Part shown: in pieces, positions 11,138 to 54,341 of the stretch
Position numbering within the stretch: the stretch's first letter is position 1
Layout of the letters: every line of letters begins with the position of its first letter
Source of the DNA: Bacteroidota bacterium
GTDB taxonomy: Bacteria; Bacteroidota; Bacteroidia; JAKFFM01
Assembly: GCA_036675075.1 (NCBI GenBank)
Contig: JAKFFM010000014.1
Location: 39,102-103,101 of the forward strand
Direction of reading: 5' to 3'
DNA length: 64,000 nucleotides
The notes under the pieces: generated by a model
What the model saw: the letters and a program-made list of their open reading frames with translations, nothing else
The model's database searches: none
What the model was told of the DNA's origin: nothing
Translations under genes and position numbers: made by a program

Positions 11138-11141
11138 TCCA

Positions 11142-19391: not shown

Positions 19392-19433
19392 AGGTACGAT
19401 TTAAATACCTTACGGCAAAACTGTAATCGTACC
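19392..19433. repeat. Perfect 10-bp inverted repeat (AGGTACGATT / AATCGTACCT, 22-nt loop) spanning the stop codon of the upstream T9SS gene, 30 nt upstream of guaB
   Basis: Seen directly in the sequence. The minus-strand transcript would form a stem-loop here. No strong U-tract follows. Confidence 0.5.
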
Positions 19434-30941: not shown

Positions 30942-32788
30942 TCTTCAATTGAATTTCGTTCAAGCCAGTCGCTTAAGACAACTAGATGCCAGATTCTTGT
31001 CCAGGGAATTTCCGGATCACCTCCGCGGAACTGCTCCCAAAGCCTGATCAGCTGCTCACTATAGACAAACCCATATTTTGACAGGTTCATGATCCTCGAT
31101 GCACAGAGCTCTGATAGTTCATCTTTCATCCATGATCTCCAGGGAAGAACAAAGCCCATTTTTTTCCTGTTCCATGTCTCTTCAGGGAGTAATGAACCCA
31201 TTGCATCAATCAGCAGCTTCTTTCCGGGAATGAGTGGCTTGTGTCGATCAGGCACACTCAATACAAACTCAACAAGTTCATGATCCAGAAAGGGTACACG
31301 GACTTCCAGGGCATGCGCCATGCTCATCTGGTCTGTATCTCTCAATAATACATTCTGCATGTAGTTATTGATCTCAAACTCGGAAATATAGGAAACCAGG
31401 TATCCGGGATCAAGCTTAAAGATCCTTTGCGAATGCTTTGAAGCGTGCGTCTCTTTTAACAATGACAAAGCAGCTTTCTCGGGAATAACCTGTCTGTTCA
31501 CTTTTAGAAATGCATTCAGGTCAGACCGTTCATCACGAAGAAACTGACTCATCTTTTCAGCAGTGACACCTGACCTTGTCATGGTGAGCAGTGATGCAAG
31601 CTGACCGCGCAGGATTGCAGGAACTTTTGAAATATAAGGAAGTAAAGGATGCGATGATCTTCTGAATACCGGATACCCTCCAAACAGCTCATCACCACCG
31701 AGTCCTGACAGAGCCATTGTGATACCACCTTTCTTCGTTGCTTTTGAAACAACAAAGCTGTTGGGACCGTCGCCACTTGGATGATCCATTGCTGAAAGTG
31801 CTGATGGCAGCTCATCCAGGAAGTCTGACGCTTTTAAATTTATCTGATGATGATCCGTTTTGAATTTAGAAGCGACAATGTTTGAATAAGCAGCTTCATT
31901 CATTTCCTTCTCATCAAAGGCGATCGAAAAGGTTTTCACCGGTGCTTCAGACACTTCGCTCATCAATGCGACAATGGCACTTGAGTCCACACCTCCCGAC
32001 AGGAAAGCTCCGAACGGTACATCAGCAATCATTCTCTTTTCCACCGCTTCGGATAGAAGTCTTTTAACTTCAGCGCACGTTTCTGTGTAACTTAACTTTT
32101 CAACCTCTTTTCTCCTTGTGGAAGTGCTCCAGTACACTGCCCGGGTTACATTTCCTTCTGAATCCATCACCATGCTTTCACCAGGCATAAGCATGTGAAC
32201 ATCTTTGATGATGGTTTCAGGAGCGAAAACAGTCTGGTAGATAAAGTAGTCCTTCAGCGCATTTTTGTTAAGCTTCCGTGCAACAAGGCCAGAATTAAGC
32301 AATGCCCGGATCTCTGATGCAAAAGCAACAAAGCCATTTCCCTTACAGTAATACAATGGCTTAATACCAAGGCGGTCACGCGAAACAACCAGCTCGCGTT
32401 TATCTTCATCCCAGATCGCAAACGCGAACATTCCATGAAGCTCATGAACACAGTCCTTACCCCACTTCCGGAAAGCAGCCAGGATGACCTCAGAATCCGT
32501 GTTTGAAGTATAAGGATAATCAGACAGTCTTGCTTTTAACTCACGATAATTATAGATCTCTCCATTGAACACCATGCATTGCTTCCTATCAAATGAAAAC
32601 ATAGGCTGGTGGCCTGAGGAAGTGATGTCAATGATCGAGAGTCTTCGCTGACCAAGAGAAATACCATCAGACACAAAGAGTCCTTCATCATCAGGACCAC
32701 GATGAGCAAGACAGGAATTCATTCCGGTCACTGCGCTTCGAAGCTCCGCAATGTCCTTCAACCCAATGACGCCACTAATTCCGCACAT
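30938..32788 (-). CDS. asnB: Asparagine synthetase B-type glutamine amidotransferase (WbpS-like amidotransferase of glycan loci)
   Basis: MCGISGVIG N-terminal nucleophile Cys2. PP-loop SGGVDSS in the synthetase domain. 616 aa. Confidence 0.9.
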   Translation of the reverse strand: MCGISGVIGLKDIAELRSAVTGMNSCLAHRGPDDEGLFVSDGISLGQRRLSIIDITSSGHQPMFSFDRKQCMVFNGEIYNYRELKARLSDYPYTSNTDSEVILAAFRKWGKDCVHELHGMFAFAIWDEDKRELVVSRDRLGIKPLYYCKGNGFVAFASEIRALLNSGLVARKLNKNALKDYFIYQTVFAPETIIKDVHMLMPGESMVMDSEGNVTRAVYWSTSTRRKEVEKLSYTETCAEVKRLLSEAVEKRMIADVPFGAFLSGGVDSSAIVALMSEVSEAPVKTFSIAFDEKEMNEAAYSNIVASKFKTDHHQINLKASDFLDELPSALSAMDHPSGDGPNSFVVSKATKKGGITMALSGLGGDELFGGYPVFRRSSHPLLPYISKVPAILRGQLASLLTMTRSGVTAEKMSQFLRDERSDLNAFLKVNRQVIPEKAALSLLKETHASKHSQRIFKLDPGYLVSYISEFEINNYMQNVLLRDTDQMSMAHALEVRVPFLDHELVEFVLSVPDRHKPLIPGKKLLIDAMGSLLPEETWNRKKMGFVLPWRSWMKDELSELCASRIMNLSKYGFVYSEQLIRLWEQFRGGDPEIPWTRIWHLVVLSDWLERNSIEE

Positions 32789-33839
32789 GATGAAAAGATT
32801 GTGTCAACTGTTTCACTTTGAATGCCCATGATTCCGGAGTAACCGATTGTGCCAGCTCATGGCTTCTATCACCCATCCTGAGAAGCTTATCATCCTCAAG
32901 ATTCATGGCATTGAGTAACGTTTGTTTTAAATGTTCCCTGTCACCCGCTTTGAATATAAATCCATTTTGTCCTTCCTTCACAAAGGCTGAAGCAGCTCCC
33001 ACTGCAGAGCTGCAGATCAATGGAAAACCGGCAGCAGCATATTCATGCACGACGACTCCCCAGGGCTCTGATGTACTTGGAAGAATGAATATTCCCGTAT
33101 CACGAAGGATATCCGCTTGCTGCTCAGGCTGAACAAACCCGAGATGTCGGATGGATTCATGCCTGATCTTTTCTTCAGGACCTGTACCAAGGCACCACAA
33201 CTCCCAATCTGATTGATGCTCAGTCTTCAACTCATAAAATACTTCACACAATTCCTTGACCCATTTATAGGGTACATACCTGCCTGAATAAACCAGGCGA
33301 TGCGGATAGCGCCTTGCTTTTAATTCTTTGTTATGATGGTAGATCGCTGAAAAATGATCTACATCCGCCGAATAAAATCCCTGGATGATCTGCGATGAAT
33401 GAAAGCCCATCTTCAACGCGTAATCTACCTGAGGCTCACCGGGAACCCAGCAATGATTGAAGATCCTTTTCAACGTGAATGGCGAAATCAGCGAAGCGAT
33501 GTGTTGCTTCAGACTGCCTTTCCAGTGATTATCAAAGCCCACCACGACAGGAATTCTTTTTGTGTATTTACCAGCTACCTTAAGATAATCCCGATCGATC
33601 CAGCCACTGCAATAAATGAAATCAGGATGGATCTTTTCAATCAGCTTCTCAAGTGATGATGCATCATAGTCGAAACGATCATAAACGGAAAGGCGTTGAT
33701 CGAAAGAAAACGTGAATGGTGCTTCATTGTTAACGGGCCATCTCACGACATGAACCTTGTATTCAGTATCTTCAGCAAGCTTGTTAACACAAGCCAGAAA
33801 GTATCCTGCAAGTTCGGTATAGAGGAAAAGGATGTTCAT
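32775..33839 (-). CDS. Glycosyltransferase family 4
   Basis: STSEPWGVVVHEYAAAGFPLICSSAVGA (E-X7-E motif region). Confidence 0.75.
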   Translation of the reverse strand: MNILFLYTELAGYFLACVNKLAEDTEYKVHVVRWPVNNEAPFTFSFDQRLSVYDRFDYDASSLEKLIEKIHPDFIYCSGWIDRDYLKVAGKYTKRIPVVVGFDNHWKGSLKQHIASLISPFTLKRIFNHCWVPGEPQVDYALKMGFHSSQIIQGFYSADVDHFSAIYHHNKELKARRYPHRLVYSGRYVPYKWVKELCEVFYELKTEHQSDWELWCLGTGPEEKIRHESIRHLGFVQPEQQADILRDTGIFILPSTSEPWGVVVHEYAAAGFPLICSSAVGAASAFVKEGQNGFIFKAGDREHLKQTLLNAMNLEDDKLLRMGDRSHELAQSVTPESWAFKVKQLTQSFHHVRN

Positions 33840-34909
33840 CTCTTGCCTCTTTTTAGTTTAAGAACAATAAAAAACAGTACCAATAAAGTGATGCAGGCAA
33901 TTCCAAATCCGAACCAGAAATAGTTGTGCGTGATCATCAATAACGTCAGGTATGGAAGTAACCTGAAGTTAAATTCTGGCTCTTCATGTATCGTGCTTTT
34001 CCAGAAGTTTATATCATAAGATTCTAGTGACTTTAAATCCTGGCCAGTAAGGGAAATGCACTCAAATGAAATGCGGTCATTCTTCATATTCACCTTAAGT
34101 ACAGCATCACGAGGCAGCTCCCGGATAGCAGTCTGGATATGTACGATCCCTGTACCTGGATCTTTGTCATAAAAGAATGAAACAGGAGCAGATGACATTG
34201 AACCTGACATCCAGTAAACTTCCGCCAGTTTAGAAACTTCTTTAAGTAATGGTAGAACAACACGTTCATAATTGTTGTTTCCAACCATTGTACGCGTGTT
34301 ACCAGCAAAGAGTCCATCATAGCGCTTATTCTGTTCTGCCCAGACAGGACGATGAGAAAAGACAAAAACATGTTTAACTCCGGATGTACTCACTTGCTCC
34401 AGGGCTTCACGCAGCATCCCAAGCTGCTCATCTTCGATGCTGCCATCATCAGATTCTGTATCAAGAAAAACAAAGAGAGAATTTTTAAAGATGAAGTGGC
34501 TGTATGTCTTTCCATACCATTTCACATACGCCCCTCTTCCCAGGTCATGATTTCCAACAACATTAAAGAGAGGAAAGCTGATCTTTTCAAAAAAGCTTTT
34601 GTCATAATTCTCTTTCACCTGCGGATTCAGCTCAGGAAACAGATCACCGAGGGAAACCATAAAAGATGGTTTAAAAGAATTCAGCGAGTCAATATTGCCC
34701 AGGATCGTTGAGGCCGGAAAACCGGATACGTTCGAAGATGCGCCATGGATATGTCCGGTCACTAAAAAAGTAAATCCGGCAGAATCGTATTCATTGACCG
34801 CTTTACCATTAAAGGGAGAAACCTGCGTATAGCCTGTCAGTGTAAACAGGACAAAATACATGCTGATCAATATGAACTGAAGCTTTACTCCTGCCTTACC
34901 TGACATCAA
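33836..34909 (-). CDS. Calcineurin-like metallophosphoesterase, exported (signal peptide) with a C-terminal TM anchor
   Basis: MPE motifs TGHIHG, SLGDLF and VVGNHD. C-terminal hydrophobic helix followed by KLKRGKR. Confidence 0.7.
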   Translation of the reverse strand: MMSGKAGVKLQFILISMYFVLFTLTGYTQVSPFNGKAVNEYDSAGFTFLVTGHIHGASSNVSGFPASTILGNIDSLNSFKPSFMVSLGDLFPELNPQVKENYDKSFFEKISFPLFNVVGNHDLGRGAYVKWYGKTYSHFIFKNSLFVFLDTESDDGSIEDEQLGMLREALEQVSTSGVKHVFVFSHRPVWAEQNKRYDGLFAGNTRTMVGNNNYERVVLPLLKEVSKLAEVYWMSGSMSSAPVSFFYDKDPGTGIVHIQTAIRELPRDAVLKVNMKNDRISFECISLTGQDLKSLESYDINFWKSTIHEEPEFNFRLLPYLTLLMITHNYFWFGFGIACITLLVLFFIVLKLKRGKR

Positions 34910-37436
34910 CCTGCTTTTTTACTTTCTGTTCAAAATCTTTAATGATCTTCCCATTGATCATCGCCTCTGCTCCTTCTTCAATGATGTATGGATTTTCAAT
35001 GTCTTCCGAATGAAAGCCGGTAACAGTAATTTTTGGAAGGCCGTACCCTTTATTGTTTTCAAAAGCAGTGATACCGACTCTTGCATTCTTTACAGTGAGG
35101 CCATTAATGGTACCAAAGCTCGAATTCTCAAATGCAACAGCAACCTCCGTGTTAGTAATTGTGCAATTTGTCACATAGAGCTGTGATCGCTGTTTCACAT
35201 TGATCGCCTTGCCTTTATTCTGATCAATGGTAAGATCAAATAATGATGCTGTACTTGCCACAAGATCAACCGCATTTTCATTGCATTTCTCAAAGCTGCA
35301 ACGAACGATTGTTGCATAGGAATTATTCAGATCAAAGGCATCATTAGGAAGTCCATTGAACAGGCTTTTTGAAACATTGAGCCTGCTGTCATAGGCTGTA
35401 ACAGCATCTTCGAACTTCGTACCGTCAAAAATACAGCTTACCACAGCCATAGAAGTTCCGTGCAAGTACAGAACACCAGCTTTCCCTGTGACATCTTTTT
35501 GGGAAGTTGTCTTAAACCTGATGTTCATAAAAACAGAAAGTTCTTTTTGATTTACGACAGATATCACTGAACCTGATTCCGTGTTGCAAACAATATCAGA
35601 TGTTGTTTCATGGCCACCGATGAAATAAAGTGGTGAATAGGATAACAATGAACCATTCTTTTCAAAGACCAGCTTTACTCCTTCATTCAACACAAGCTTT
35701 CTTCCTTTTGGAATTATTATTTTTTCATTGATGGTGTGAGTGCCAGGAATAAAATATAAACGATCATTCTCCTCCCTGATCATAGTAAACTTCTCATAGT
35801 TCCCTTTGGACATGGTCTCCAGACCTGCTTCAATCTCATCGGCATCCGCTTTCATGTATGAAAGTATCTCAGTCTCCTTAATTTCCTTCGAGCCTGGAAT
35901 GCGGTACAGAACATACATTGGTGTGTTGCCTTTCAATCTGGCCGAAGGAAGACTGAACGTATAATATTTAACTGCTTCATTCAGCTGCTTTGAAGGAAGA
36001 ATGATTGTAGAGTCCAGATATACTGATGAATCTCTTTTGACACCAATCAGCTCGTACGGCAGAGCTTCGAGGTTACCTACCCGGAATGTTGAAACTCCCG
36101 CGGTATCTCCCTGGTAATAGGCATTGACACCCTGAGGAGCATTAAGGATCTTACGGATCATAAACTGATTCCTGTAATACATCGTCTTCTCAAACTTCTT
36201 GTAGGGAAATGCCTTATTGAGTATAGCAAGGTTCTTTTTCAGTTCGTTCTGATGCGTCGCGAAAAAAGCATCAAGATATTCTGTCTGACTGATCCTTGTT
36301 AATGCCCTGATATATTCAGCATAGAAAGCAGGATCGCTGAATATGGTTACATGCAGGTCTTCCACCGCCTTTCCAGGTTCCAGTTTACGGAATCTGTATA
36401 AGCCGGAGATTGTGTTTGTTGGAAATACAGCAAAGCTTTCGTAAGCAACAGGTTCAAATTTCAGCGTGACAGGATTGAAGTAATATTTCACATCACTCCA
36501 GTCGAGGCTATGATATCCACCCAACAAGTCAATGATGCTGTGAAAGCGGGCAAGCTTAGGGATGTCGAACACCTGAGGCACAGTAAACCTGCCTTCTCTG
36601 AACCCATCCATCAGCGCAATGGCTTTAAGGAAATTATTCTTGTTTTCCGGATCAGAAATGAATTTGTTCTCCCGGTATGCTTCCAGCCTTGCAGACTGAA
36701 AAGAAGAGAACTCCTCCACAGGCTTTTCACGAAGCATCTCGTTATACCTGTTCACCCAATAGAGATCAGGATTAAATCTGACAAGAGGTCCTGCGAGACG
36801 CCCGTTATTTTCAAGGAGCTCTTTATCAAAGTTCTCCTCGATCGCATAGATCCCATTACTCTTCCCGTTTATATATACTTCAATGAAGCTGTAACGAAGT
36901 GCAATGATCCCTTCCTGTTTCATCAGGGCATGATAGATCCATTCATGAATATATCCTCTCGTTCCAGGATGCTGGATGGAAAAGAGCTTCATGCCTTTTA
37001 CGCTGCCCTTATCTTCAACCTTAACCCTGAATGACCATTGATCTCCCGAAATATGATCGGTCATGTGGCCTTTCAACCGGATCTTGCATTTTATCTCTTC
37101 TCCCTGGTACGTGATCGTTGCGGGAACGAAGCTACCTGGCTCATTAATGATAACGCCTCTTTTCAAAGCGATCTTTCTGTCTCTTGAGATCTTCTGGAAA
37201 TCCGGCGCTTTGATGTCCAGGTAAAGTTTTTCCGGATGGGCATTAAACGATGAGATGTAATTCGAGGATACCGTCTGGATAAAATCACCTGTACCTTCAA
37301 ATCCTTTCCTGGCAACGAACCTGCCTGTATAGATCCATCCTGCAATTAACAGCACGAGAAGTACGAGCAATGTAATAAGCATCCAGTTACGGCGCTTCCT
37401 GTTCTTTTTTGGCTGCTCTTTCTGATAGACTTTCAT
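34896..37436 (-). CDS. CotH-family atypical kinase with N-terminal signal-anchor and C-terminal right-handed beta-helix (pectin-lyase-like) region
   Basis: N-terminal TM (NWMLITLLVLLVLLIAGWIY). CotH core IRLKGHMTD...FRVK...SIQHPGTRGYIHEWIYHALM...YINGKSNGIYAIEE. The C-terminal ~350 aa are rich in N/T/G repeats, typical of parallel beta-helix. Confidence 0.7.
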   Translation of the reverse strand: MKVYQKEQPKKNRKRRNWMLITLLVLLVLLIAGWIYTGRFVARKGFEGTGDFIQTVSSNYISSFNAHPEKLYLDIKAPDFQKISRDRKIALKRGVIINEPGSFVPATITYQGEEIKCKIRLKGHMTDHISGDQWSFRVKVEDKGSVKGMKLFSIQHPGTRGYIHEWIYHALMKQEGIIALRYSFIEVYINGKSNGIYAIEENFDKELLENNGRLAGPLVRFNPDLYWVNRYNEMLREKPVEEFSSFQSARLEAYRENKFISDPENKNNFLKAIALMDGFREGRFTVPQVFDIPKLARFHSIIDLLGGYHSLDWSDVKYYFNPVTLKFEPVAYESFAVFPTNTISGLYRFRKLEPGKAVEDLHVTIFSDPAFYAEYIRALTRISQTEYLDAFFATHQNELKKNLAILNKAFPYKKFEKTMYYRNQFMIRKILNAPQGVNAYYQGDTAGVSTFRVGNLEALPYELIGVKRDSSVYLDSTIILPSKQLNEAVKYYTFSLPSARLKGNTPMYVLYRIPGSKEIKETEILSYMKADADEIEAGLETMSKGNYEKFTMIREENDRLYFIPGTHTINEKIIIPKGRKLVLNEGVKLVFEKNGSLLSYSPLYFIGGHETTSDIVCNTESGSVISVVNQKELSVFMNIRFKTTSQKDVTGKAGVLYLHGTSMAVVSCIFDGTKFEDAVTAYDSRLNVSKSLFNGLPNDAFDLNNSYATIVRCSFEKCNENAVDLVASTASLFDLTIDQNKGKAINVKQRSQLYVTNCTITNTEVAVAFENSSFGTINGLTVKNARVGITAFENNKGYGLPKITVTGFHSEDIENPYIIEEGAEAMINGKIIKDFEQKVKKQVDVR

Positions 37437-38741
37437 TTACCGGGCGACTTGCACTGCTTCCTGGTCTTTGTGAAACTCAGGGTTTGTGATAACAGTTAAG
37501 ATAATAAGAAAGATGATTGTAAGCGGGTTCAATGACCCTACCATCCATGATTCAAAAAAAGCACTGAAGGTCACAGCAAACATAATTGGAAACGACAACG
37601 GTGTCAGTTTAGCTGCCCTTATAAATGTCAGGAGATAAGACCTCATAAAGATGATCAGTCCAATCAGTCCTGTATCCATCCAGAATGTAAGGAATGAATT
37701 ATGCACTCCGCCCTGATGTCCCAGCTTTGTAAGGAGCATATAATGTTTCCTCATGTAATATTCATTATAACCAAAGCCTCTTCCTACAAAAAAGTTTGTC
37801 TGGATATGATCCCATGCAAATTTCCAGGCGACAATCCTTCCGCTTCCTTCAGATAAAGTTTCAAGTCTGAAGAACTTCTGGAGTCCCAAAGCAATGATGA
37901 TCACCTCGAAATTCTCACCCACCAACTCCGTGATGATGACAATCACGAAAAAGATGAGGAATCCCAACATCGGCGACATGAAATAAAATCTCTTTAACAA
38001 CAGGAACAAAAGAACTGCAATCATTGAGTTACGGGAGCCACAAAGAATCAGGGAGGCAATAAGGACGATATTAAAAAGCTGCCATGCCCGCTTGGAGAAG
38101 ATCGCTCCTCTCAGATGCGCAAGTGTGTGGGCAAGCGTAAATATCAAAAAGGTAAACAGTCCCAATCCGTTCGGGTTACCTAAAGGACCATTGTATCTTC
38201 CCTTTACATAAACCATTTCACGATCGACAAACATCAATACAAATCCAACGCAGAGGAATGTGAAAACAAGCATGAGAAAATCCACAAGGAACCTGTCTTT
38301 TTCCTCCCTGTAAACCCGCTGAATGTAGTTGGGGACTGATATGAACAGGAGTATGTATGATAATGTTTTCTGAATGCTTATCGGCAAGGTCACAGAAAAT
38401 GAAAGACAAAAAACCGCGAACAAAAAGAACGGCAGGAATGTTTTAAAGATCGTATTATAAGGAACGAACTTCTTACTGTCTAAAAAGAAGAACAGCGAGA
38501 ACATGACGATGTACATGTTCTTGAGAGACTTAGCAAAGAGCAGCTCAGGATCCAGCCTGTCGGAAAGGATCAGAATAAACAGGAATCCAAAGAGGATCTC
38601 CTTGTTGTACTCTTTCCTTTTTAGAAGCAGAAGGCTTGCACCGACAACAACAAATGCCAGAACATTCGAGATAATCCCGGCCAGAAGCCAGACGATCAGC
38701 ATAAAATAAAACTGCATGTTTCTTTTATAGTGATCTTTCAT
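37437..38741 (-). CDS. O-antigen ligase/polymerase family (Wzy_C) integral membrane protein
   Basis: ~11 TMs with a large periplasmic loop near the C-terminal third (…NSFLTFWMDTGLIGL…), typical of WaaL/Wzy_C proteins. Confidence 0.65.
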   Translation of the reverse strand: MKDHYKRNMQFYFMLIVWLLAGIISNVLAFVVVGASLLLLKRKEYNKEILFGFLFILILSDRLDPELLFAKSLKNMYIVMFSLFFFLDSKKFVPYNTIFKTFLPFFLFAVFCLSFSVTLPISIQKTLSYILLFISVPNYIQRVYREEKDRFLVDFLMLVFTFLCVGFVLMFVDREMVYVKGRYNGPLGNPNGLGLFTFLIFTLAHTLAHLRGAIFSKRAWQLFNIVLIASLILCGSRNSMIAVLLFLLLKRFYFMSPMLGFLIFFVIVIITELVGENFEVIIIALGLQKFFRLETLSEGSGRIVAWKFAWDHIQTNFFVGRGFGYNEYYMRKHYMLLTKLGHQGGVHNSFLTFWMDTGLIGLIIFMRSYLLTFIRAAKLTPLSFPIMFAVTFSAFFESWMVGSLNPLTIIFLIILTVITNPEFHKDQEAVQVAR

Positions 38742-38743
38742 AT

Positions 38744-40423
38744 CTATAGCTTGAATTTTTTCTGACTATACTTTTCAAGCTGCCGTGAAACAACTTCAGA
38801 ACGACGTTGCGCAAAGGTTCTGAGGATATTCACTTCCCTTTTCCAGGAATCAACTGACGACAATGTTCTCCAGCGATCAAGGTGGTGCGGCATTTCATCT
38901 TCCAGCTGATGCTCGAACCTGTTGATCAGTGCGATCACCCGTTCAGGCTTAAACGTTGACTTAAGGTGAAACCTGAATCGTTCCGTAAAGAAATCTCTGT
39001 ATGCATCATTTTCAAACAGTCCCCGCATAAGCACTCCCATATCAGACGTGTAAAGCGCCTTCTGAAACATATCGGTTTCAATTGAATTAGGCCCTGTGTA
39101 ACCGAAACCATAATCCGTATCAAACAGTATCCACTTCCATTTCCCTGATGTGCTTCCTGAGTCAGGCCGCCAGAACCTGCAGTTGTTCGCTGGCCAGTCT
39201 GAATTCGCAAAGTATATGTTCGCAATTACAAAATCAGTCAGGTTCTCAAGATCGATCTGCTCATTCACTTTCCTGAAAACACTGGTATCAGAGCAACCTT
39301 TGACACGTACCTCCGACAAAAGCTGGCTGAATGAATTCAATGAAGCTTCATTACCATCTTTCAATGTGACTGGCATTTCCAGGATCGTTACACTGTCTTT
39401 AGGCACAGAATATTTCAGTGCGAGGTACTCATTATCAACATGGTCTCTCAGGTTATGTATCCCCCAGTATTCACCATTGATATATACAATCACCGGCTGA
39501 TATCGCTGGATCTCCAGATCAAACCCCGTCATGAGAGTCTGCATGAGTTCATCACGGAACATGGTCTTGGTCCAGTCATTCCCACCGTTTCGCAATACAA
39601 ATGAATGAGTCAGGCGGGCAGAATCATTAAAAAAGCTGAACTGACGGGGCACACCCAGGTCAATGGTCAGAGATTTCTGAGCAAAGGCGCGTGTTGCATT
39701 CCCACGGATCCTTAAACCGATATGAGAAGTCAATATGCTTTTACCATTTGCGATGTATTCAACCTGTCCAGGGCGTTCAGAATCAGCTCCACGGTTGGTA
39801 TAATTTGCCGGATAATCCCACCACTTTGAATCCAGTGGCAACATGTGCCTGATGTAATACCTCTTATCCTCATAGCGCTCACCGAGCACATAAATGCCTG
39901 TCTGCTGGCTGAAAAGATCATTCTCATTTACTGTGATGGACACTATTGGAAGTTCTGACCTGTATGCACTTTGAAGGAATAATCTTGATACAGGATTAGC
40001 AAGCTTTGCATTTGCCGTCAGGTTGGAAGCTCTGAATAAAGTGGCGATACGTTCAGAATCTTCAAGAGGAGGAAACCACCGTGGAGACGTTGGAATGTAG
40101 CTCAGCTTGCCAGGTGCAACAGGTCTTTTAAAGTATAGAGGCGTTGTATAAAAATTGCTTTCAAGACCAGGAGTGCTTCCATCAATAGTATAAACAGTGC
40201 CTGGAGTATAGTTTTCAACTTTCACCCTCACAGGGAAAACATGATAACCTGATTCCGGAGATATGATCAGCTCTTTGTTAAGGCTTGCGGTGACGACAGG
40301 AGGCAGAGGATCGCCCTTGTACACAATGGAAAACAAAAAGAAAGATCCTATAATGAGAACACCAAGGACGAGAACAGCACGGGCGCTTAAGATATGTCTC
40401 CTAACAGGCTTGATGTGCTTCAT
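38744..40423 (-). CDS. CotH-family atypical kinase, membrane-anchored (second copy)
   Basis: N-terminal TM (AVLVLGVLIIGSFFLFSIVY). CotH core ...GLRIRGNATR...IDLG...VLRNGGNDWT...YINGEYWGIHNLRD... Confidence 0.7.
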   Translation of the reverse strand: MKHIKPVRRHILSARAVLVLGVLIIGSFFLFSIVYKGDPLPPVVTASLNKELIISPESGYHVFPVRVKVENYTPGTVYTIDGSTPGLESNFYTTPLYFKRPVAPGKLSYIPTSPRWFPPLEDSERIATLFRASNLTANAKLANPVSRLFLQSAYRSELPIVSITVNENDLFSQQTGIYVLGERYEDKRYYIRHMLPLDSKWWDYPANYTNRGADSERPGQVEYIANGKSILTSHIGLRIRGNATRAFAQKSLTIDLGVPRQFSFFNDSARLTHSFVLRNGGNDWTKTMFRDELMQTLMTGFDLEIQRYQPVIVYINGEYWGIHNLRDHVDNEYLALKYSVPKDSVTILEMPVTLKDGNEASLNSFSQLLSEVRVKGCSDTSVFRKVNEQIDLENLTDFVIANIYFANSDWPANNCRFWRPDSGSTSGKWKWILFDTDYGFGYTGPNSIETDMFQKALYTSDMGVLMRGLFENDAYRDFFTERFRFHLKSTFKPERVIALINRFEHQLEDEMPHHLDRWRTLSSVDSWKREVNILRTFAQRRSEVVSRQLEKYSQKKFKL

Positions 40424-41094
40424 CAGAACATGGTCTTCTCTATGCCTTCGATGTATTTCGAGTTTTTGGTAAGAAGAAAATGAATCTCCTTACCTATATT
40501 TTTGGCCTGCAGTTCATGATCATTATCGTACTTAAGCTCGATCACTGTGTTTCCACGATCCAGCTTTACCTTATTCAGAAAGAGATTATTGAACTTATTC
40601 ATCTTATAAAAGATCTGGTCATAATCTATGGTGATCCTGAACCTGTGATCAGCGGAAATGAAATATCGTCTCTTATAAGTATTCAGCAACGTTGCGTTCA
40701 GTGTTCTGCCAAGCACATCGATATAAGGTTTTGTTGGATCACCCACACACAGATCCAGTGAGTTTGTTGAAAATCCTGGTCCAATAGTAAAAGGCTTAAG
40801 CTTATAATGATGCTTATAACCCATATGACCTTTCTTAACCTTTATTTCCAGAACTGGATCCTCAACATAGCGGAACGTTTCACCATACCAGCGTATCCTG
40901 TATTTCCACCTGTTTGCCCGGCCTTCAATGTTATCGTAATAATTCTCAAAGCCAGGGGAGTCGAAATAGATGTTGTTGATCTGCCTTTCGTGGAATGCTT
41001 CGTTGAATAGAGCGGGATGGCCTTTTAACAGCTGAATGATGTCAGCATGAAAAGCTTCGGTCCTGTATTTCCTTTCAAAGCGCAGTGATTCCAA
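40423..41094 (-). CDS. VTC-domain (polyphosphate-polymerase-like, CYTH-related triphosphate-tunnel) protein
   Basis: Begins FERKYRT... (ExKY tunnel start). Its size, ~220 aa, is typical of bacterial stand-alone VTC (PF09359) proteins. 1-nt overlap with the CotH gene. Assignment rests on motif recall. Confidence 0.55.
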   Translation of the reverse strand: MESLRFERKYRTEAFHADIIQLLKGHPALFNEAFHERQINNIYFDSPGFENYYDNIEGRANRWKYRIRWYGETFRYVEDPVLEIKVKKGHMGYKHHYKLKPFTIGPGFSTNSLDLCVGDPTKPYIDVLGRTLNATLLNTYKRRYFISADHRFRITIDYDQIFYKMNKFNNLFLNKVKLDRGNTVIELKYDNDHELQAKNIGKEIHFLLTKNSKYIEGIEKTMF

Positions 41095-41098
41095 ATGA

Positions 41099-41809
41099 TC
41101 AGAAATCTCTTGAATTATCTAAAAATGAAACTGTAACCGTAGGGTCTAATGTCTGAAGCGCGACTCTTGCAGCTTCGATCTTCTTGTAATCAGTGATATC
41201 AACCAGGAGATTCAGCTCGGATCCTGTTGTTGCATGATCCATCCTTTTAAGTTTGATGCCTTCACAATGAGGTGTTAAAGCTTCAATATATTTCTCAGCT
41301 TCTACCGGTGCTCCTGTTGAGGATATCGTCACATAGATCAGCTGACCAGATTCAACACTTTCTTTTCTTGAAAGTGTGAATATAACAGCGAGAAATCCTG
41401 TAAATGCAATGATCGTAAGTATGGTAAGACCTGCACCGCAACCCAGACCGATCGCGATAGTAAGAAACAAATAAGTCAGCTCCTCAGGCTCTTTGATCGC
41501 AGCGCGGAACCTCACAATGGAAAGAGCTCCCACAAGTCCGAGGGAAAGTGCCAGTGATGACTTGACCACTGAAATGATGAACATGGTGGTGATTGCCAGA
41601 AGGACAAAGTTCTTGGCAAATGCTGTACGGTTCGAAACCGAATGTCCGTACCTCACATATACCTTGGAAAGGATATAGGATAATAAAACACAAACCAGGA
41701 AGCTGAAAATAAATACAGGCAATGATTTAAAAGAAAACCCTGCGAGATTTTCAGCGAGAAATGCTTTTAACTCGTTCATTCGATCAATTAGATTTGCAAA
41801 AATAGTCAA
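41099..41809 (-). CDS. DUF4956-like small membrane protein (4 TM) that usually accompanies VTC-domain proteins
   Basis: Four hydrophobic helices followed by a soluble C-terminal ~80-aa domain. Assignment is by genomic context (CotH/VTC/DUF4956 co-occurrence) plus topology. Confidence 0.45.
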   Translation of the reverse strand: MTIFANLIDRMNELKAFLAENLAGFSFKSLPVFIFSFLVCVLLSYILSKVYVRYGHSVSNRTAFAKNFVLLAITTMFIISVVKSSLALSLGLVGALSIVRFRAAIKEPEELTYLFLTIAIGLGCGAGLTILTIIAFTGFLAVIFTLSRKESVESGQLIYVTISSTGAPVEAEKYIEALTPHCEGIKLKRMDHATTGSELNLLVDITDYKKIEAARVALQTLDPTVTVSFLDNSRDF

Positions 41810-45540: not shown

Positions 45541-46729
45541 GGTTGATGGTATTACTTATTATTTCAGTAAAAATAGAGGTTTGCCGGGCTTTACCAAACT
45601 CACCTTTCATCTTTTCATATGCGTTCGCTGTGAGCTTTTCGCGAAGTGACGGGTCTGACAGGAGCTTTCGTAATGAAGATGTCAGAGATCCACTCTCATT
45701 ATCAGGATCAATGAATAAGGCTTCATGATCTTTTCTAAAAAGATCTTTCACAGATGGTGAAGATGGTGCAATGACAGGGATACCGGCCTCCGCATATTCA
45801 AACAACTTTAACGGACTGCCATACCAGTTCGTGCCGGGCATTACACCAACAGCAATCTGTTTTTTATATTCGGTCAACTCCTCTTCGTTCACAAAGCCAG
45901 GCATGATGATCCGAGAACTATATGGATGATTCATTGCAAGCTGATGAATCCGTTCCCATTCGCCTCCGTACCCTAAAAGCAACAGGTTGATGCCTGGGAA
46001 TTCTGAACCAATTGTTTCGAATGACTTAAGCAGAAGCTCTACTTTATGCCAGACAAGAAAAGATCCGATGAACCCGACGTATTTCCTTCTTTCGTTTTCA
46101 TAGGGCAAGGATATGCCTTTCCATACGATGCAGGGCATGATGGAAATGTCGCACTTCACATTGTAGCTTGATTGTACATATTTCCTCACAGGATCAGAAT
46201 AACAGATCAGGTGATCAGCATGCTCCACGGAGAAAGCTTCCGCTTTTCCGATCCTTTTCAGATACATGGATCCTGCAGGATGCATTTCAATGTATTGATG
46301 TTCAAGAGGAGAATCATAGATCAAAACCAGGGACTTCTTTGACCTTGCTTTAAGCCTTGCACCAATGGAAGAACCATAGGTCAGGAATTCTATGATGATG
46401 TCAGCATCTGCGACTATCCGTTCAGCTTCCCGGTAAATCAGTTCCTGCGCTTTGTAGTACCTGTGATCAGCCAGTGTATTGTACAGGTATGGAGCGAATT
46501 TCCTGAAGGCTTTCTTGAGCTTCGATGTCATTGAATTCCCTGTCGAGCTTTTATGAGTCGTTAACAGTCCTGCACCATCGGAAAAAGGTAAAAGAGTGAC
46601 CTGGAAACCCTGTTCAGTCAATGCATCTGAAAGCAGCAGAAGGTATTTAGCAACGGCAGAGTTTTCATTTCGGAATGAAAAGCCTGGTACGCCAATTATA
46701 AACAAAGCCTTTTTACTTTTTTCAATCAT
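45524..46729 (-). CDS. Glycosyltransferase family 4
   Basis: C-terminal GSPLKLFEYAEAGIPVIAPSS motif region. Confidence 0.75.
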   Translation of the reverse strand: MIEKSKKALFIIGVPGFSFRNENSAVAKYLLLLSDALTEQGFQVTLLPFSDGAGLLTTHKSSTGNSMTSKLKKAFRKFAPYLYNTLADHRYYKAQELIYREAERIVADADIIIEFLTYGSSIGARLKARSKKSLVLIYDSPLEHQYIEMHPAGSMYLKRIGKAEAFSVEHADHLICYSDPVRKYVQSSYNVKCDISIMPCIVWKGISLPYENERRKYVGFIGSFLVWHKVELLLKSFETIGSEFPGINLLLLGYGGEWERIHQLAMNHPYSSRIIMPGFVNEEELTEYKKQIAVGVMPGTNWYGSPLKLFEYAEAGIPVIAPSSPSVKDLFRKDHEALFIDPDNESGSLTSSLRKLLSDPSLREKLTANAYEKMKGEFGKARQTSIFTEIISNTINRGIKK

Positions 46730-47921
46730 GACCTACTCTGTCTGCTATATACATTTTCAAACGCTCCGCCTGCACCTTCCTGTGAAACTGTGAATGACCA
46801 GAAACAGAATACCGGCCTGTCGCATGATAATCAATCCTGTCGAAGCTTTCACCAAATCCGTTATCGCGGATCAGGCGGTAGAGCTCATAATGTTCACTTA
46901 CTGTTCCCGAATAAATGATGGGTTTATGAGCCCCAATGTATTCGAACACTTTTCCTGTTAAATAGCCATTGGCCGCTCCATTGAAATTCGAGAACTGCAA
47001 TACAAAGGCTGAATAATTCTGCAAGGTCATCGAAGCCTGGTATGACAGCCCTTTTATTATTTCCAGCTCCTGAATACCAGCCTCTTTAGAAGCATTGTTG
47101 AGATAGGCTATATCTGAATCATTCAGCACAGCGAAAATGAGTCGGAATTTTTTATCGAGTCCATGCTTTTTAAAGTATTTCAGGAAAGGCACCACATCTC
47201 TTTCACCATTATACAGAGATCCTGTGTAAGAGATCACTGGCAGTTCTGATGGTTTCAGTGTATCCAGAAAATTCACATCATCTTTAAAATCGTAATCCTC
47301 AAAACCATTGTAAACTACTTCTCCTTTCAGTCCTGTGAGCTTTTCAATTTGTGCCTGAAGAACCGCAGAGACGGTAACAAATCCATCCGCCTGACTGACG
47401 ATGTTCTTTTCGATCTTTTCAAAAAACATTCTGAAAATTCCGAAGTCATAATATTCAAGGCCTGAATAAAGATCCCGGTAATCGATGATCCATTTTATCT
47501 GAGGGTACTGCTTTTTGATGGATGCACCTATATGCAGGCAATCAAGAGGCCCATAGCTTGTGAGAATGTAATCATACGAGCTGAGGTCAATGTCTTGCAG
47601 CTTCGCCATTGCTTCACGGTAAAAAGTGGAAGGAGCAGCACCAATAAAATACTTCAGTTTGAATACATCGTGAAGAATAAACTGCCTGATCCTGGCCAGT
47701 CCTTTAGGCTGTCGTTCACCGTAGTTCGGATCTGGTTTCTTTTCGCCTGTGTATATGATCTGAGCATTTCCGAGAGGCAGGTCAAGATTATCAATCCATC
47801 GCGGAGCAAGAACATCCAGCCGGCTAGTCCCTTCATTCAGGTACCTCGAAAATGAACCAGTACGATGAGAAGCAATGGAATTCACAGGTGGAAAGAAATA
47901 AGTGATGAGGAGGCCTTTCAT
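46722..47921 (-). CDS. Glycosyltransferase, GT4-like (WbuB-type N-terminus)
   Basis: MKGLLITYFFPPVNSIASHRTG resembles the ITxxFPP N-terminal motif of GT4 enzymes. GT-B length. Confidence 0.6.
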   Translation of the reverse strand: MKGLLITYFFPPVNSIASHRTGSFSRYLNEGTSRLDVLAPRWIDNLDLPLGNAQIIYTGEKKPDPNYGERQPKGLARIRQFILHDVFKLKYFIGAAPSTFYREAMAKLQDIDLSSYDYILTSYGPLDCLHIGASIKKQYPQIKWIIDYRDLYSGLEYYDFGIFRMFFEKIEKNIVSQADGFVTVSAVLQAQIEKLTGLKGEVVYNGFEDYDFKDDVNFLDTLKPSELPVISYTGSLYNGERDVVPFLKYFKKHGLDKKFRLIFAVLNDSDIAYLNNASKEAGIQELEIIKGLSYQASMTLQNYSAFVLQFSNFNGAANGYLTGKVFEYIGAHKPIIYSGTVSEHYELYRLIRDNGFGESFDRIDYHATGRYSVSGHSQFHRKVQAERLKMYIADRVGHD

Positions 47922-52196: not shown

Positions 52197-54341
52197 TTAT
52201 TCAACAAAAAGCTTCCCGGTCTTTCTCGCTCCGGCAACATCTACATGGTAAAGGTAAATGCCGGCAGCAAGCCCATTCAGGTTCACAGTTTCTGTTGTTG
52301 AACCATTCAGATCAATTCCCTGGACTTTTTCTCCAACCATATTAAAGAGGCTGAACGTTGCTTTTGAAGATCCCAGGTCACCGATGGTGAGTGAGATCTG
52401 ACCAGCTGCAGGATTTGGCCAGAGTGCAAATGAACTCAGTATTGATTCTTCTGTTGAGATGCAAATGTCATAGGCAATGGCTATAGTGTCCGATGCACTG
52501 CAGCCCGCTGAGTTGGTGACTGTAACAAAATAATTGCCTGCTGTATTAACAGCCAGTGAGCTAGCAGTTGAACCATCATTCCAGAGATAGGTATGACCTG
52601 TATCAGCGTAAAGAATTACCGTTTGAGCATTACAGGCTATTGAATCCGGGCCCAGGTAAACCGTAGGTGAAGCTGAGACGGAGATATAATCTTCAAGAAT
52701 GAGTGTGTCTGATGTATAGGAATTCGATGTGATCAAAGTGACATCATAGGATCCCGGAACTGCATAGTTCACAGTTGGAGTATTCGAAGAAGATGTATTC
52801 GGGCTTGCACCAGGCAATATCCACTGATATGAAACCGGTGATCCATCCTGTACCGCATTTAAGGTTACATTTCCGGCATCACAAAAAGTGCTGGCGCTGG
52901 TGAATACATCCGGATCAACAGCTGGCCACAATTTAGCGATATAACCATCATATCCATTACCGGATGTTACCGTGATGGTGTCAAAATCCATCGCAGGAGC
53001 TCCGGTGTATTCTCCGCCAACATAGATGTTCCCGGTAGGATCCACTGCGAGACCTCTTGCAATTGATGAAGTGGTACCTCCTCCATTCAACTTATACCAA
53101 CGCATGTTCCCAAGCGTATCATAGGCAGTGACAAATGAATGTGGATTGCCTCCAAGAGAAATGCTTGTTCCAGACATATCCACTGCTCCGCTTAACGATC
53201 CTGTTATGAGCACCCGATGTGCGGGAGTGATTTCAATGTCATCAACTGAGACGACCCCAGGATTACCAATCGTTTTAACCCATTTAAAATTTCCGTTGCG
53301 GTCATACTTTGCGAGAAAGATATCAATCCCGGCATTTGCTGACGCAGCATCATTTCCCCAGCCAATTGAGTTTATTGTTGTTGTACCAAAAGTGAGGTTA
53401 TTTGCGAATGTTCCAGTTACATAGATGTTATCGACCGAATCCGTTGCAAGTGCATAAGGCAGATCCTGGTAAGCACCCACAGCAGTTTTTGTCCATTTGA
53501 AGTTTCCATTCACATCCAGCTTCATCAGGAACACATCACCCCACGAAGGACTGTTACCTGGAAACGTTGTGCTACCTATGTAAAGATTTCCTTTATAATT
53601 TCCTGTAACAACCAGGTCTCCCTGACGATCAATACGAATTTCATTTCCTTCACCATTGTATTGAACATTGATTGTTTTAACCCATTGACAAGTCCCGGAA
53701 GAATTGAACTTAGCGATGAAAGGGACATTCTTACCTGAAGTACCGAATGTTACTCCGTCAAAATTTGAAGGACCACTAACATGCCCTGTAACGTATGAAT
53801 TACCTGCAGTATCTGCAATGATGCTGTATCCCCGTGAATTATTCACTCCTGTTGAACCAGCTCCTTTAGCCCATAAGCATGTTCCTGAACTGTCGTATTT
53901 GGCAACGAAAATATTCCTGTTCTGATTTGTACCCACACCAATGATCGTGATGTTCCCAAACGAGGCAGTATCACAAAAGTCACCGGTGACATAAACATTG
54001 GAATTTTTGTCAGTACACACCGCCCTGCCCCAGTCAGCAAACTTTCCACCATCACGCTTCGCCCACACCAGTTCTCCATTAGCCCGGTACTTGGCAAGGA
54101 AGGCATCTGTTTCAGTCGATGATTTCCATGGGGGTGTTTGCAGATTTGAACCCCACCCGAAAGTAGAAGTTGCTTTAACACGCCCTGTCGAGAGCACATT
54201 TCCCTGGGGATCGAGTGCTACATCCCAGCAATATTCATTACCTCCGGGACGAATAGTTTGCACCCAGTTCCATTGTTGGGAAAAGGCATCTGAAACAAAA
54301 AAAAGAAAAAGCAATAGCTGCCAGAAGTAGCGTTGTTTCAT
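52197..54341 (-). CDS. T9SS cargo protein with type-A C-terminal sorting domain, SBBP-like beta-propeller repeats and a PKD/Ig-like domain
   Basis: Signal peptide. Many repeats of ...GNxYVTG.F.G...FG... (SBBP-type). C-terminus ...LWPNPAAGQISLT...ATFSLFNMVGEKV...GIYLYHVDVAG.RKTGKLFVE is the type-A por-secretion CTD. Confidence 0.75.
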   Translation of the reverse strand: MKQRYFWQLLLFLFFVSDAFSQQWNWVQTIRPGGNEYCWDVALDPQGNVLSTGRVKATSTFGWGSNLQTPPWKSSTETDAFLAKYRANGELVWAKRDGGKFADWGRAVCTDKNSNVYVTGDFCDTASFGNITIIGVGTNQNRNIFVAKYDSSGTCLWAKGAGSTGVNNSRGYSIIADTAGNSYVTGHVSGPSNFDGVTFGTSGKNVPFIAKFNSSGTCQWVKTINVQYNGEGNEIRIDRQGDLVVTGNYKGNLYIGSTTFPGNSPSWGDVFLMKLDVNGNFKWTKTAVGAYQDLPYALATDSVDNIYVTGTFANNLTFGTTTINSIGWGNDAASANAGIDIFLAKYDRNGNFKWVKTIGNPGVVSVDDIEITPAHRVLITGSLSGAVDMSGTSISLGGNPHSFVTAYDTLGNMRWYKLNGGGTTSSIARGLAVDPTGNIYVGGEYTGAPAMDFDTITVTSGNGYDGYIAKLWPAVDPDVFTSASTFCDAGNVTLNAVQDGSPVSYQWILPGASPNTSSSNTPTVNYAVPGSYDVTLITSNSYTSDTLILEDYISVSASPTVYLGPDSIACNAQTVILYADTGHTYLWNDGSTASSLAVNTAGNYFVTVTNSAGCSASDTIAIAYDICISTEESILSSFALWPNPAAGQISLTIGDLGSSKATFSLFNMVGEKVQGIDLNGSTTETVNLNGLAAGIYLYHVDVAGARKTGKLFVE

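Follow-up and report, generated by a model that had tools for sequence, protein, structure and literature searches.

A seven-gene Bacteroidota cassette linking exported CotH proteins to a VTC-type polyphosphate polymerase homologue at a glycan locus

Introduction

The 64,000-nucleotide stretch of contig JAKFFM010000014.1 from a Bacteroidota bacterium that is analysed here (hereafter the window) carries, inside a glycan operon on its minus strand, a cassette of seven genes in the order DUF4956-VTC-CotH-A-Wzy_C-CotH-B-metallophosphoesterase-GT4, which is a variant of the known, uncharacterised module formed by the CotH, VTC and DUF4956 families. As judged by their active-site motifs, its two CotH proteins are not equivalent: CotH-A is of the canonical type, whereas CotH-B belongs to a large subfamily with a histidine in place of the catalytic aspartate. 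We know of no energy-rich phosphoryl donor outside the cytoplasmic membrane of bacteria, though exported kinase-like CotH proteins are common among them. The cassette links such exported CotH proteins to a polyphosphate polymerase homologue, a membrane partner and an exported phosphatase, and thereby points to a concrete and testable answer to the question of the donor. That answer, namely that the cassette modifies a surface glycan outside the cytoplasmic membrane with polyphosphate as the source of phosphate, is offered tentatively, as a possibility that falls somewhat short of an even chance.

Organization and conservation of the cassette

Six of the genes lie side by side between positions 33836 and 41809 of the window, with junctions that measure, from 33836 up to 41809, -14, 0, +2, -1 and +4 nucleotides (nt), and the seventh, which encodes a GT4 glycosyltransferase (32775–33839, minus strand; Pfam Glycos_transf_1 and Glyco_trans_1_4), shares a 4 nt overlap with the phosphoesterase gene. 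The original prediction, made from the sequence before any database search, had described the six as contiguous minus-strand genes that overlap or abut each other, and all are present at the coordinates that it gave; every one of its domain calls (two CotH, PF08757; VTC, PF09359; DUF4956, PF16316; metallophosphoesterase, PF00149; and Wzy_C, PF04932) was recovered by Pfam hidden Markov models (HMMs), and the exported topology that it had proposed for both CotH proteins and the phosphoesterase was upheld by a hydropathy scan. NCBIfam provided no useful names for the six proteins. Gene callers place slightly later starts in the genes for DUF4956 (226 amino acids, aa), CotH-B (828 aa) and the phosphoesterase (356 aa).

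A scan with a VTC profile, taking one genome per species, returned 80 loci, which were annotated with HMMs built from the window proteins. The complete seven-gene order is found in 16 loci, exclusively in other Bacteroidota, and about 8 further Bacteroidota cassettes are broken off by contig ends. Across the Bacteroidota cassettes the VTC proteins are 41–51% identical and the upstream flanking genes vary; chance juxtaposition of the cassette genes is ruled out by a gene order that recurs at only 40–50% identity. The loci of two relatives, for example, encode DUF4956, VTC, a CotH protein with CHB_HEX_C/Fn3_assoc domains, Wzy_C, a CotH protein with a Beta_helix domain, a protein of about 350 aa and GT4, followed by an epimerase, DegT and AsnB, with upstream genes unlike those of the window. 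GT4 comes directly after the phosphoesterase in all complete cassettes, and the Wzy_C protein, the phosphoesterase and GT4 are conserved parts of the cassette, not mere neighbours of it. One cassette (L005) has a small PDDEXK_3 gene (11028–11363 of that locus) between VTC and CotH-A and is otherwise intact.

A wider core, consisting of DUF4956, a CotH/beta-helix protein of about 860–900 aa and VTC in this or a permuted order, often with a phosphoesterase nearby, is carried by Saprospiraceae, Flavobacteriaceae, Cyclobacteriaceae, Bacteroidales, Krumholzibacteriia, Planctomycetota, Gammaproteobacteria, Omnitrophota, Ignavibacteriales, Nannocystaceae and Vicinamibacteria. It is also present in four archaeal assemblies, labelled as Woesearchaeota, Methanocella, Nanoarchaeota (a single-cell genome) and an unclassified archaeon (L059, L064, L074 and L083), with the proviso that many of the loci come from metagenome-assembled genomes (MAGs) and that their taxonomic labels, the archaeal ones included, depend on binning. 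Within this archaeal-labelled set, L074 has two copies of the core. The neighbours of the archaeal cores include Wzx, NeuB/CMP-sugar and UDP-glucose dehydrogenase genes, and the Methanocella locus adjoins the genes for HMG-CoA reductase and IleRS. In 46 loci VTC is flanked by 6 kb or more in each direction (full-flank loci); DUF4956 accompanies it in 45 of them, CotH in 40 and GT4 in 28, while a relative of the phosphoesterase lies in the flank of 26. The neighbours of the non-cassette loci are mainly glycan genes, such as those for Wzy_C, Wzx, Bac_transf, DegT, NTP_transferase and dTDP-sugar enzymes, and also include sulfotransferases with APS kinase. The synteny with glycan genes, on which the original prediction had staked its case in advance, is thus kept within Bacteroidota and beyond, in further phyla and in archaea.

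The VTC protein and its DUF4956 partner

The VTC protein (40423–41094, minus strand; 223 aa; Pfam VTC, 90.5 bits) is a stand-alone triphosphate-tunnel protein of the Vtc4 type, predicted to be cytoplasmic, and a candidate polyphosphate polymerase. At E <= 1e-5 some 1950 relatives of it are found, and those closest to it, 44–51% identical, are again stand-alone proteins, about 230 aa long and encoded in Bacteroidota MAGs. A family profile of 25 relatives matches the catalytic domain of yeast Vtc4 (3g3q and 8i6v_E) with E = 8e-8. Residue correspondences here and below are taken from profile alignments, and topology from hydropathy and the positive-inside rule. Window residues R5 and K9 correspond to R196 and K200 of Vtc4, R66 and R68 to R264 and R266, E186 and K188 to E426 and K428, and K210, S212 and K213 to K455, S457 and K458; all nine are invariant in the 25 relatives, and every Vtc4 tunnel residue examined is kept, in agreement with the ring of Lys, Arg and Glu side chains that had been named as a check on the VTC assignment. 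Work by Hothorn et al. in 2009 reportedly found K200 and K458 of Vtc4 to be required for catalysis. The Vtc4 mutant R264A/R266A/E426N is catalytically impaired, and in the yeast complex synthesis is coupled to translocation via a channel lined with basic residues, which are required; the isolated tunnel domain is slow unless coupled in this way (PMC9911596). The window protein has the VTC domain only by Pfam, with no SPX sensor and no fused DUF202-type membrane domain, and no transmembrane (TM) segment by hydropathy. Since the SPX and membrane domains are missing, it is at most similar to the catalytic module and not a subunit of a VTC complex.

The adjoining gene (41099–41809, minus strand) encodes an MgtC-like DUF4956 membrane protein (Pfam DUF4956, 62 bits; cut-off 30.6), whose family gave more than 8000 matches in the search; all 26 of its relatives match PF16316. 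Its AlphaFold2 (AF2) model, with a predicted local distance difference test score (pLDDT) of 78, begins with an amphipathic helix, continues with five helices in the membrane and ends in a ferredoxin/ACT-like C-terminal domain, which revises the four TM segments proposed originally. Residues 79–126 form a membrane block of about 45 residues that is nearly identical from bacteria to archaea, reading IVKSSLALSLGLVGALSIVRFRAAIKEPEEL.YLF..IAIGLG.GA, and K83, R100, R102 and K106 are invariant. In the model, R100, R102 and K106 would lie at the cytoplasmic boundary of the membrane if the ACT-like domain is cytoplasmic. The ACT-like domain structurally resembles MgtC C-domains. The MgtC HMM (PF02308) scores 13.5 bits against the window protein (cut-off 31.4), weak Pfam MgtC matches below the gathering score occur in 19 of the 26 relatives (best E = 4e-4), and JGI names relatives 'YhiD'. 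To our knowledge, MgtC itself has no established biochemical function.

The likeness to MgtC bears on an alternative in which the VTC and DUF4956 proteins would act on the cytoplasmic side only, with VTC making or hydrolysing polyphosphate or triphosphate and the MgtC-like ACT domain sensing a metabolite and tuning VTC or the glycan machinery, the whole being a regulatory device or energy buffer for glycan export in which no polyphosphate crosses the membrane. It would accord with the ACT-like C-domain, with the weakly MgtC-like membrane part for which no structural match to a known channel was found, with the action of Salmonella MgtC on ATP synthase and phosphate signalling (summarised in PMC12345266), and with the suggestion by the authors of a study on Streptococcus intermedius that polyphosphate perhaps stays cytoplasmic (PMC12345266). 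However, neither the near-constant exported CotH partners and the frequent exported phosphoesterase nor the near-identical membrane block, with its invariant basic residues shared from bacteria to archaea, would find an explanation here, and the slowness of the isolated yeast tunnel domain when it is not coupled to translocation (PMC9911596) also speaks against it; this alternative is regarded as improbable.

Two non-equivalent CotH proteins

CotH-A (38744–40423, minus strand; 559 aa; Pfam CotH, 183 bits, and CHB_HEX_C_1) and CotH-B (34896–37436, minus strand; 846 aa; Pfam CotH, 37 bits, and Beta_helix, 41.6 bits; CotH cut-off 23.8 in both cases) each begin with a strongly basic N-terminus followed by one TM segment, from which an N-in, C-out type II signal anchor is predicted. 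The same arrangement of a basic N-terminus and one TM segment recurs in nearly all of the about 100 CotH proteins in the collected loci. As they would be anchored with the N-terminus inside and the catalytic part outside, these enzymes are placed where ATP is not expected.

CotH-A has an N-terminal domain of the CHB_HEX_C/Fn3_assoc type. Its residues K250, E318, D409, N414, D435 and D437 are invariant in 15–23 orthologues, and its segments NSDWPANN and FDTDYGFG correspond to QNFDGFVHN and PWDYDATWG of Bacillus cereus CotH (5jd9), as mapped through the alignment of the CotH-B profile to 5jd9 and an hhalign comparison of CotH-A with CotH-B (probability 58%). On this mapping CotH-A keeps the canonical catalytic motifs D..N and DxD. 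When the CotH-A protein and its profile were compared with the PDB by sequence, no CotH was recovered and the CHB_HEX_C-like N-terminal domain alone was matched. In B. subtilis CotH the catalytic Asp is D228 and the metal-binding Asp D251, and CotH has been described as a distant relative of Fam20C (PMC7821199).

The canonical motifs of CotH-A invite the explanation that the CotH proteins are ATP-dependent protein kinases, as in the spore coat, which would act on proteins of glycan assembly or export or on surface proteins, VTC and DUF4956 contributing only indirectly through phosphate or energy homeostasis. The sole biochemically characterised members of the family are indeed Ser/Thr protein kinases that use ATP (PMC7821199), and control of Pel synthesis by protein phosphorylation has been proposed for the Gram-positive homologues (PMC7112168). 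This explanation is nevertheless distinctly unlikely. In essentially all members the catalytic domains are predicted to lie outside the cytoplasmic membrane, where we know of no source of ATP, and the accessory domains (beta-helix, CHB_HEX_C and Fn3_assoc) belong to types that bind or process carbohydrate. The widespread partner of VTC and DUF4956 is the His variant described below, which lacks the catalytic Asp, and the obligatory linkage to a polyphosphate polymerase homologue is left unexplained. Another supply of phosphoryl donor for exported CotH proteins could be an ATP/ADP antiporter of the kind encoded in a conserved five-gene cassette that adjoins the stalk-formation cluster of Zetaproteobacteria, in which Sfz6 has a CotH domain (10.1101/2021.03.12.435129).

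The family profile of CotH-B matches 5jd9 with E = 5e-12, and the AF2 model (pLDDT 84) comprises a TM helix, a kinase-like domain (65–431), a beta-sandwich (437–526) and a right-handed beta-helix (553–830). In Foldseek comparisons, the model matches 5jda/5jd9 (E = 6e-12, target-normalised TM-score 0.63–0.65), and the beta-helix matches phage tailspikes, chondroitinase B, the epimerases AlgE4 and AlgG, pectate and alginate lyases and WceF. His309 aligns with the catalytic Asp of CotH, which in 5jd9 stands 23 residues before the metal-binding Asp, as do D228 and D251 in B. subtilis; the catalytic-loop Asn aligns with position 315 and the metal-binding Asp with position 333. Over 51 relatives from bacteria and archaea, the His is present in 49, N/D315 in 46 and the acidic metal ligand E/D333 in all 51. 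The surrounding signature is similarly constant: H128, S135, R160 and the pair E200 and E201 occur in 51/51, W134 and E328 in 50/51, K/R133 in 48/51 (Gln133 in the window CotH-B itself; in the alignment, the 'KKS' strand of B. cereus CotH has its first Lys here) and K139 in 47/51. In the beta-helix, D699, D702 and D724 are near-invariant.

With His in place of the catalytic Asp, CotH-B has the CotH fold and is not a canonical CotH kinase. As E/D333 and N/D315 are kept where the Asp is replaced, the pattern indicates an altered chemistry under selection rather than decay. The reading of CotH-B as a dead pseudokinase was ruled out, the altered site being near-invariant across domains of life and the His variant being the sole CotH in most non-cassette loci. 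The subfamily is a large one: the kinase-like domain alone retrieved 1983 cluster representatives (E <= 1e-30) out of 1.84 billion, and the majority of these proteins are 820–900 aa in length. In Flavobacteriaceae and relatives the His-type CotH domain (430–610 aa) and a beta-helix protein of about 850 aa are encoded by separate genes that flank VTC-DUF4956, often with a phosphoesterase in front (L035, L037, L051, L058, L068, L069, L071, L076 and L086), which indicates that the CotH-B-type domain and the beta-helix work together. Two Saprospiraceae loci (L046 and L050) display four tandem CotH-B-like paralogues around DUF4956/VTC, in some of which the signature residues are degraded.

The exported phosphoesterase, the Wzy_C protein and the glycan operon

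The metallophosphoesterase (33836–34909, minus strand) is recognised weakly by Pfam (Metallophos, 22.4 bits against a cut-off of 21.5) and is predicted by hydropathy to have an N-terminal signal-like segment (6–24) and a C-terminal TM anchor (332–350); all members of its family have signal sequences. Residues G88-D89, G119-N120-H121-D122 and H186, which make up motifs II–IV, are invariant in 17–37 relatives. The profile is closest to SMPDL3A, Lmo2642 and GpdQ and also matches Mre11 and purple acid phosphatases, and the protein is a candidate polyphosphatase or phosphate editor.

The Wzy_C-family protein (37437–38741, minus strand; Pfam Wzy_C, 52 bits; cut-off 31.7) is a polytopic membrane protein with at least 7 hydrophobic segments, and its gene sits at the same position, with a CotH gene on either side, in about 20 orthologous cassettes. 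It contains the stretch H347-N348-S349...G358-L-I-G361, in which H347, G358 and G361 are invariant in 16 orthologues; we take H347-N-S-x9-G358-x2-G361 to fit the WaaL ligase motif H[NSQ]x9Gxx[GTY], which in such ligases lies in the large periplasmic loop. Its profile matched no PDB sequence at E <= 1. The setting of the gene is provided by about 40 kb of glycan operon around the cassette, with GT2, GT4, GT11, acyltransferase and sugar-nucleotide enzyme genes along with DegT, an AsnB-type amidotransferase, a pyruvyl transferase and a polysaccharide deacetylase. An ORF at the window edge (63290–63958, minus strand) covers the C-terminal half of an ABC ATPase and includes a Wzt_C domain, and neither a Wzx flippase nor a second Wzy-like membrane protein was found in the operon (24–64 kb region). 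Owing to the Wzt_C domain and the absence of Wzx and of a second Wzy-like protein, the glycan looks ABC-transporter dependent, and with no other Wzy-like ORF there the cassette protein is the sole ligase or polymerase candidate of the operon. This gene complement favours a role as a ligase, probably of the WaaL type, over that of a Wzy polymerase.

A possible mechanism and its weight

From the gene content, motifs, predicted topology, folds and synteny described above, we infer that polyphosphate is made, exported and used as a donor, that a glycan is the substrate and that the steps follow the order given here. On the inner face of the membrane, cytoplasmic VTC would build polyphosphate from ATP, and DUF4956, with its invariant basic belt of K83, R100, R102 and K106, would take the chain and pass or gate it to the periplasm, a step that may be likened to the coupling of synthesis to translocation by yeast VTC. 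Outside, the two exported CotH proteins would use polyphosphate to phosphorylate the polysaccharide or to add a phosphate chain to it, while the polysaccharide would be held by CotH-B through its beta-helix and by CotH-A through its CHB_HEX_C-type domain. The exported metallophosphoesterase would trim or remove polyphosphate, as Ppn2 does in the yeast vacuole, and the WaaL-like Wzy_C protein would ligate the glycan, exported by a Wzm/Wzt-type ABC transporter, to its acceptor. The role proposed in the original prediction, in which a surface glycan is phosphorylated or polyphosphate-modified and the phosphoesterase serves as editor, would be compatible with all the findings. A more sweeping form of the proposal, in which VTC together with DUF4956 both makes and exports polyphosphate in prokaryotes, the CotH proteins of the His variant are polyphosphate-using phosphotransferases and the whole is a general bacterial and archaeal device for powering extracytoplasmic glycan phosphorylation, with the exported metallophosphatase as its off-switch, is rather doubtful.

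Several points weigh against polyphosphate as the donor. We know of no CotH that uses polyphosphate, of no MgtC-family protein that acts as a channel and of no phosphate-bearing glycan from these uncultured organisms. The membrane part of DUF4956 showed no structural match to VTC or another known channel, the ACT-like domain alone being matched, and the loop that bears His309 is poorly modelled (AF2 pLDDT < 50). In the phosphoesterase, motif I reads G52-H53-x-H/Y55 and not DxH, and motif V reads GS or GD, without the His; the protein is a divergent calcineurin-like member whose metal site may differ. The CotH proteins that have been characterised use ATP, as Ser/Thr protein kinases (PMC7821199). 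In S. intermedius, deletion of the VTC gene had no aggregation phenotype, and deletions of the CotH and DUF4956 homologues shift Pel in opposite directions (PMC12345266), which argues against a simple linear pathway. Among the 46 full-flank loci the phosphoesterase is present in only the 26 mentioned above, and CotH is absent from the flank in 6, comprising 5 VTC-DUF4956 pairs and 1 VTC alone (L044, with neither DUF4956 nor CotH in its flank). The pair-only loci (L045, L053, L077, L078 and L084) have no CotH within 10 kb, and their VTC proteins measure 265–298 aa in four and 233 aa in L078. Given these five full-flank loci with the pair alone, the VTC-DUF4956 pair is evidently able to function without CotH.

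The pair-only loci lend themselves to a further alternative, in which polyphosphate itself is the product: VTC and DUF4956 would deposit polyphosphate on the surface or in the matrix, where it would serve an amino-sugar-rich glycan as counter-ion or cross-linker, the CotH/beta-helix proteins would bind or process the glycan by cutting, epimerising or anchoring it, with no transfer of phosphate, and the phosphoesterase would set the length of the polyphosphate. VTC-DUF4956 is the tightest unit of the system (45/46), the beta-helix with its near-invariant D699, D702 and D724 matches lyases, epimerases and tailspikes, and the polysaccharide deacetylase, DegT and the AsnB-type amidotransferase would fit a glycan of amino sugars. 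The Gram-positive trio accompanies the cationic polymer Pel (PMC7112168). Yet the CotH-like domain of CotH-B has a constellation of polar residues that stays near-invariant from bacteria to archaea, which is difficult to account for unless the kinase-like site is catalytic or binds a specific ligand, CotH-A retains all the canonical kinase motifs, and CotH is present in 40 of the 46 loci. Polyphosphate as an end product is viewed as unlikely.

Were polyphosphate indeed the donor, this would be categorically new biochemistry. A true reading along the proposed lines would assign functions to bacterial VTC, to the DUF4956/MgtC-like branch and to the large body of CotH proteins unconnected with sporulation, and would add a new glycan decoration in Bacteroidota, in the streptococcal and clostridial Pel biofilm systems and in archaea. 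Should it prove mistaken, well-defined targets would still remain in the seven-gene cassette and in the subfamily of His-variant CotH proteins, which numbers about 2000 clusters at 50% identity.

Other features of the window

The window has a G+C content of 42%, which together with its type IX secretion cargo genes is indicative of Bacteroidota. Two cargo proteins of type IX secretion are encoded in or beside the glycan region, one with SBBP repeats, PKD and Por_Secre_tail domains (52197–54341, minus strand) and the other with fn3 and CHU_C domains (19410–21461, minus strand). Type IX cargo of Bacteroidota is often anchored on a surface glycan, and these two proteins could be acceptors. The glycan operon also encodes a soluble protein of 399 aa (46722–47921, minus strand) with no significant Pfam match and a sub-threshold Glyco_transf_4 hit only, and another of 539 aa (61684–63303, minus strand) that has no significant Pfam match. 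A scan for sigma-70 promoters and terminators over 25–44.9 kb gave fewer sites than shuffled sequence and is uninformative on the operon boundaries, Bacteroidota promoters being different.

Comparison with known systems

The closest known relative of the cassette is the trio of genes found beside Gram-positive pelDEADAFG operons, where CotH, a 'polyphosphate polymerase' (VTC) and DUF4956, along with DUF4832, were reported as accessory genes (Whitfield et al. 2020, PMC7112168), with the suggestion that protein phosphorylation regulates Pel synthesis there. The same trio stands at the Pel locus of S. intermedius (SIR_1592-1594) and was partly tested genetically, deletions of the CotH and DUF4956 homologues changing Pel levels and aggregation (mBio 2025, PMC12345266), and the NELoc-2 locus of C. 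perfringens has VTC-'tubulin'-CotH genes (PMC2879425). The window locus resembles these in that the three families are contiguous and lie at an exopolysaccharide locus, and in the predicted placement of the proteins, with a secreted CotH, a VTC in the cytoplasm and a membrane-bound DUF4956 that ends in an ACT-like domain. Unlike them, it is an ABC-transporter-type glycan locus without pelDEADAFG or DUF4832, has two CotH genes, one canonical and one a His variant fused to a beta-helix, and fixes a WaaL-like gene, an exported metallophosphoesterase and GT4 in the cassette. Its identity as a Pel locus was ruled out on the absence of Pel-specific families: PelG, PelD, PelE and DUF4832 had no match among about 45 ORFs scanned (24–64 kb), and the GT4 genes present are generic. 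The 2025 study found no synteny of the trio outside Pel loci (PMC12345266); contrary to this, such synteny exists outside Pel loci in many phyla and in archaea. That no function is established for the trio, as the original prediction had it, agrees with the literature up to 2025. Its further claim of an undescribed system does not hold for the trio, which was already reported beside Gram-positive pel and in NELoc-2, but stands for the cassette: no description of the seven-gene Bacteroidota cassette, of the recurrent phosphoesterase or of the His-variant CotH/beta-helix subfamily was found in the literature covered, a scope that leaves aside Nguyen et al. 2016 (PNAS).

Individual components can be set against better-known counterparts in the same way. 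The window CotH proteins share family and fold with the spore-coat CotH of Bacillus (5JD9/5JDA), but they are membrane-anchored, predicted to be exported and fused to carbohydrate-type domains, their host is non-sporulating and Gram-negative, and CotH-B has His at the catalytic Asp and Trp at the Lys that precedes the invariant Ser. A parallel might also be drawn with secretory kinases of the Fam20 type, such as the xylose kinase Fam20B and the mannose kinase POMK, which have atypical kinase folds, act outside the cytosol and in some cases phosphorylate glycans; the pairing of an active enzyme with an active-site variant, as in the kinase Fam20C and the pseudokinase Fam20A, would be a further likeness, all of this being general knowledge and confined to the fold class as far as homology goes. 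Those kinases differ in that ATP is imported into the Golgi. DUF4956 shares weak MgtC matches and an ACT-like C-domain with MgtC/YhiD/SapB but is a separate family, always beside a VTC gene, and the Wzy_C protein, which agrees with the WaaL/Wzy_C family in its Pfam match, polytopic build, ligase-type His motif and ABC-transporter-type operon, departs from it in being locked between two CotH genes and in having no sequence match to a solved structure.

Finally, the yeast VTC complex, made up of the catalytic tunnel of Vtc4 and a membrane channel of Vtc1/3/4, offers, with the vacuolar polyphosphatases Ppn1 and Ppn2, an analogue to the proposed division of labour. In yeast, Ppn2 is a lumenal vacuolar metallophosphatase with polyphosphatase activity that acts opposite VTC (PMC7381174). 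The window VTC protein is homologous to the catalytic tunnel domain of Vtc4 and keeps its key residues, its membrane partner has conserved basic residues, and a metallophosphatase is predicted on the far side, as Ppn2 is in yeast; in contrast, the far side here would be the periplasm rather than an acidic organelle, and exported kinase-like enzymes have been added to the set.

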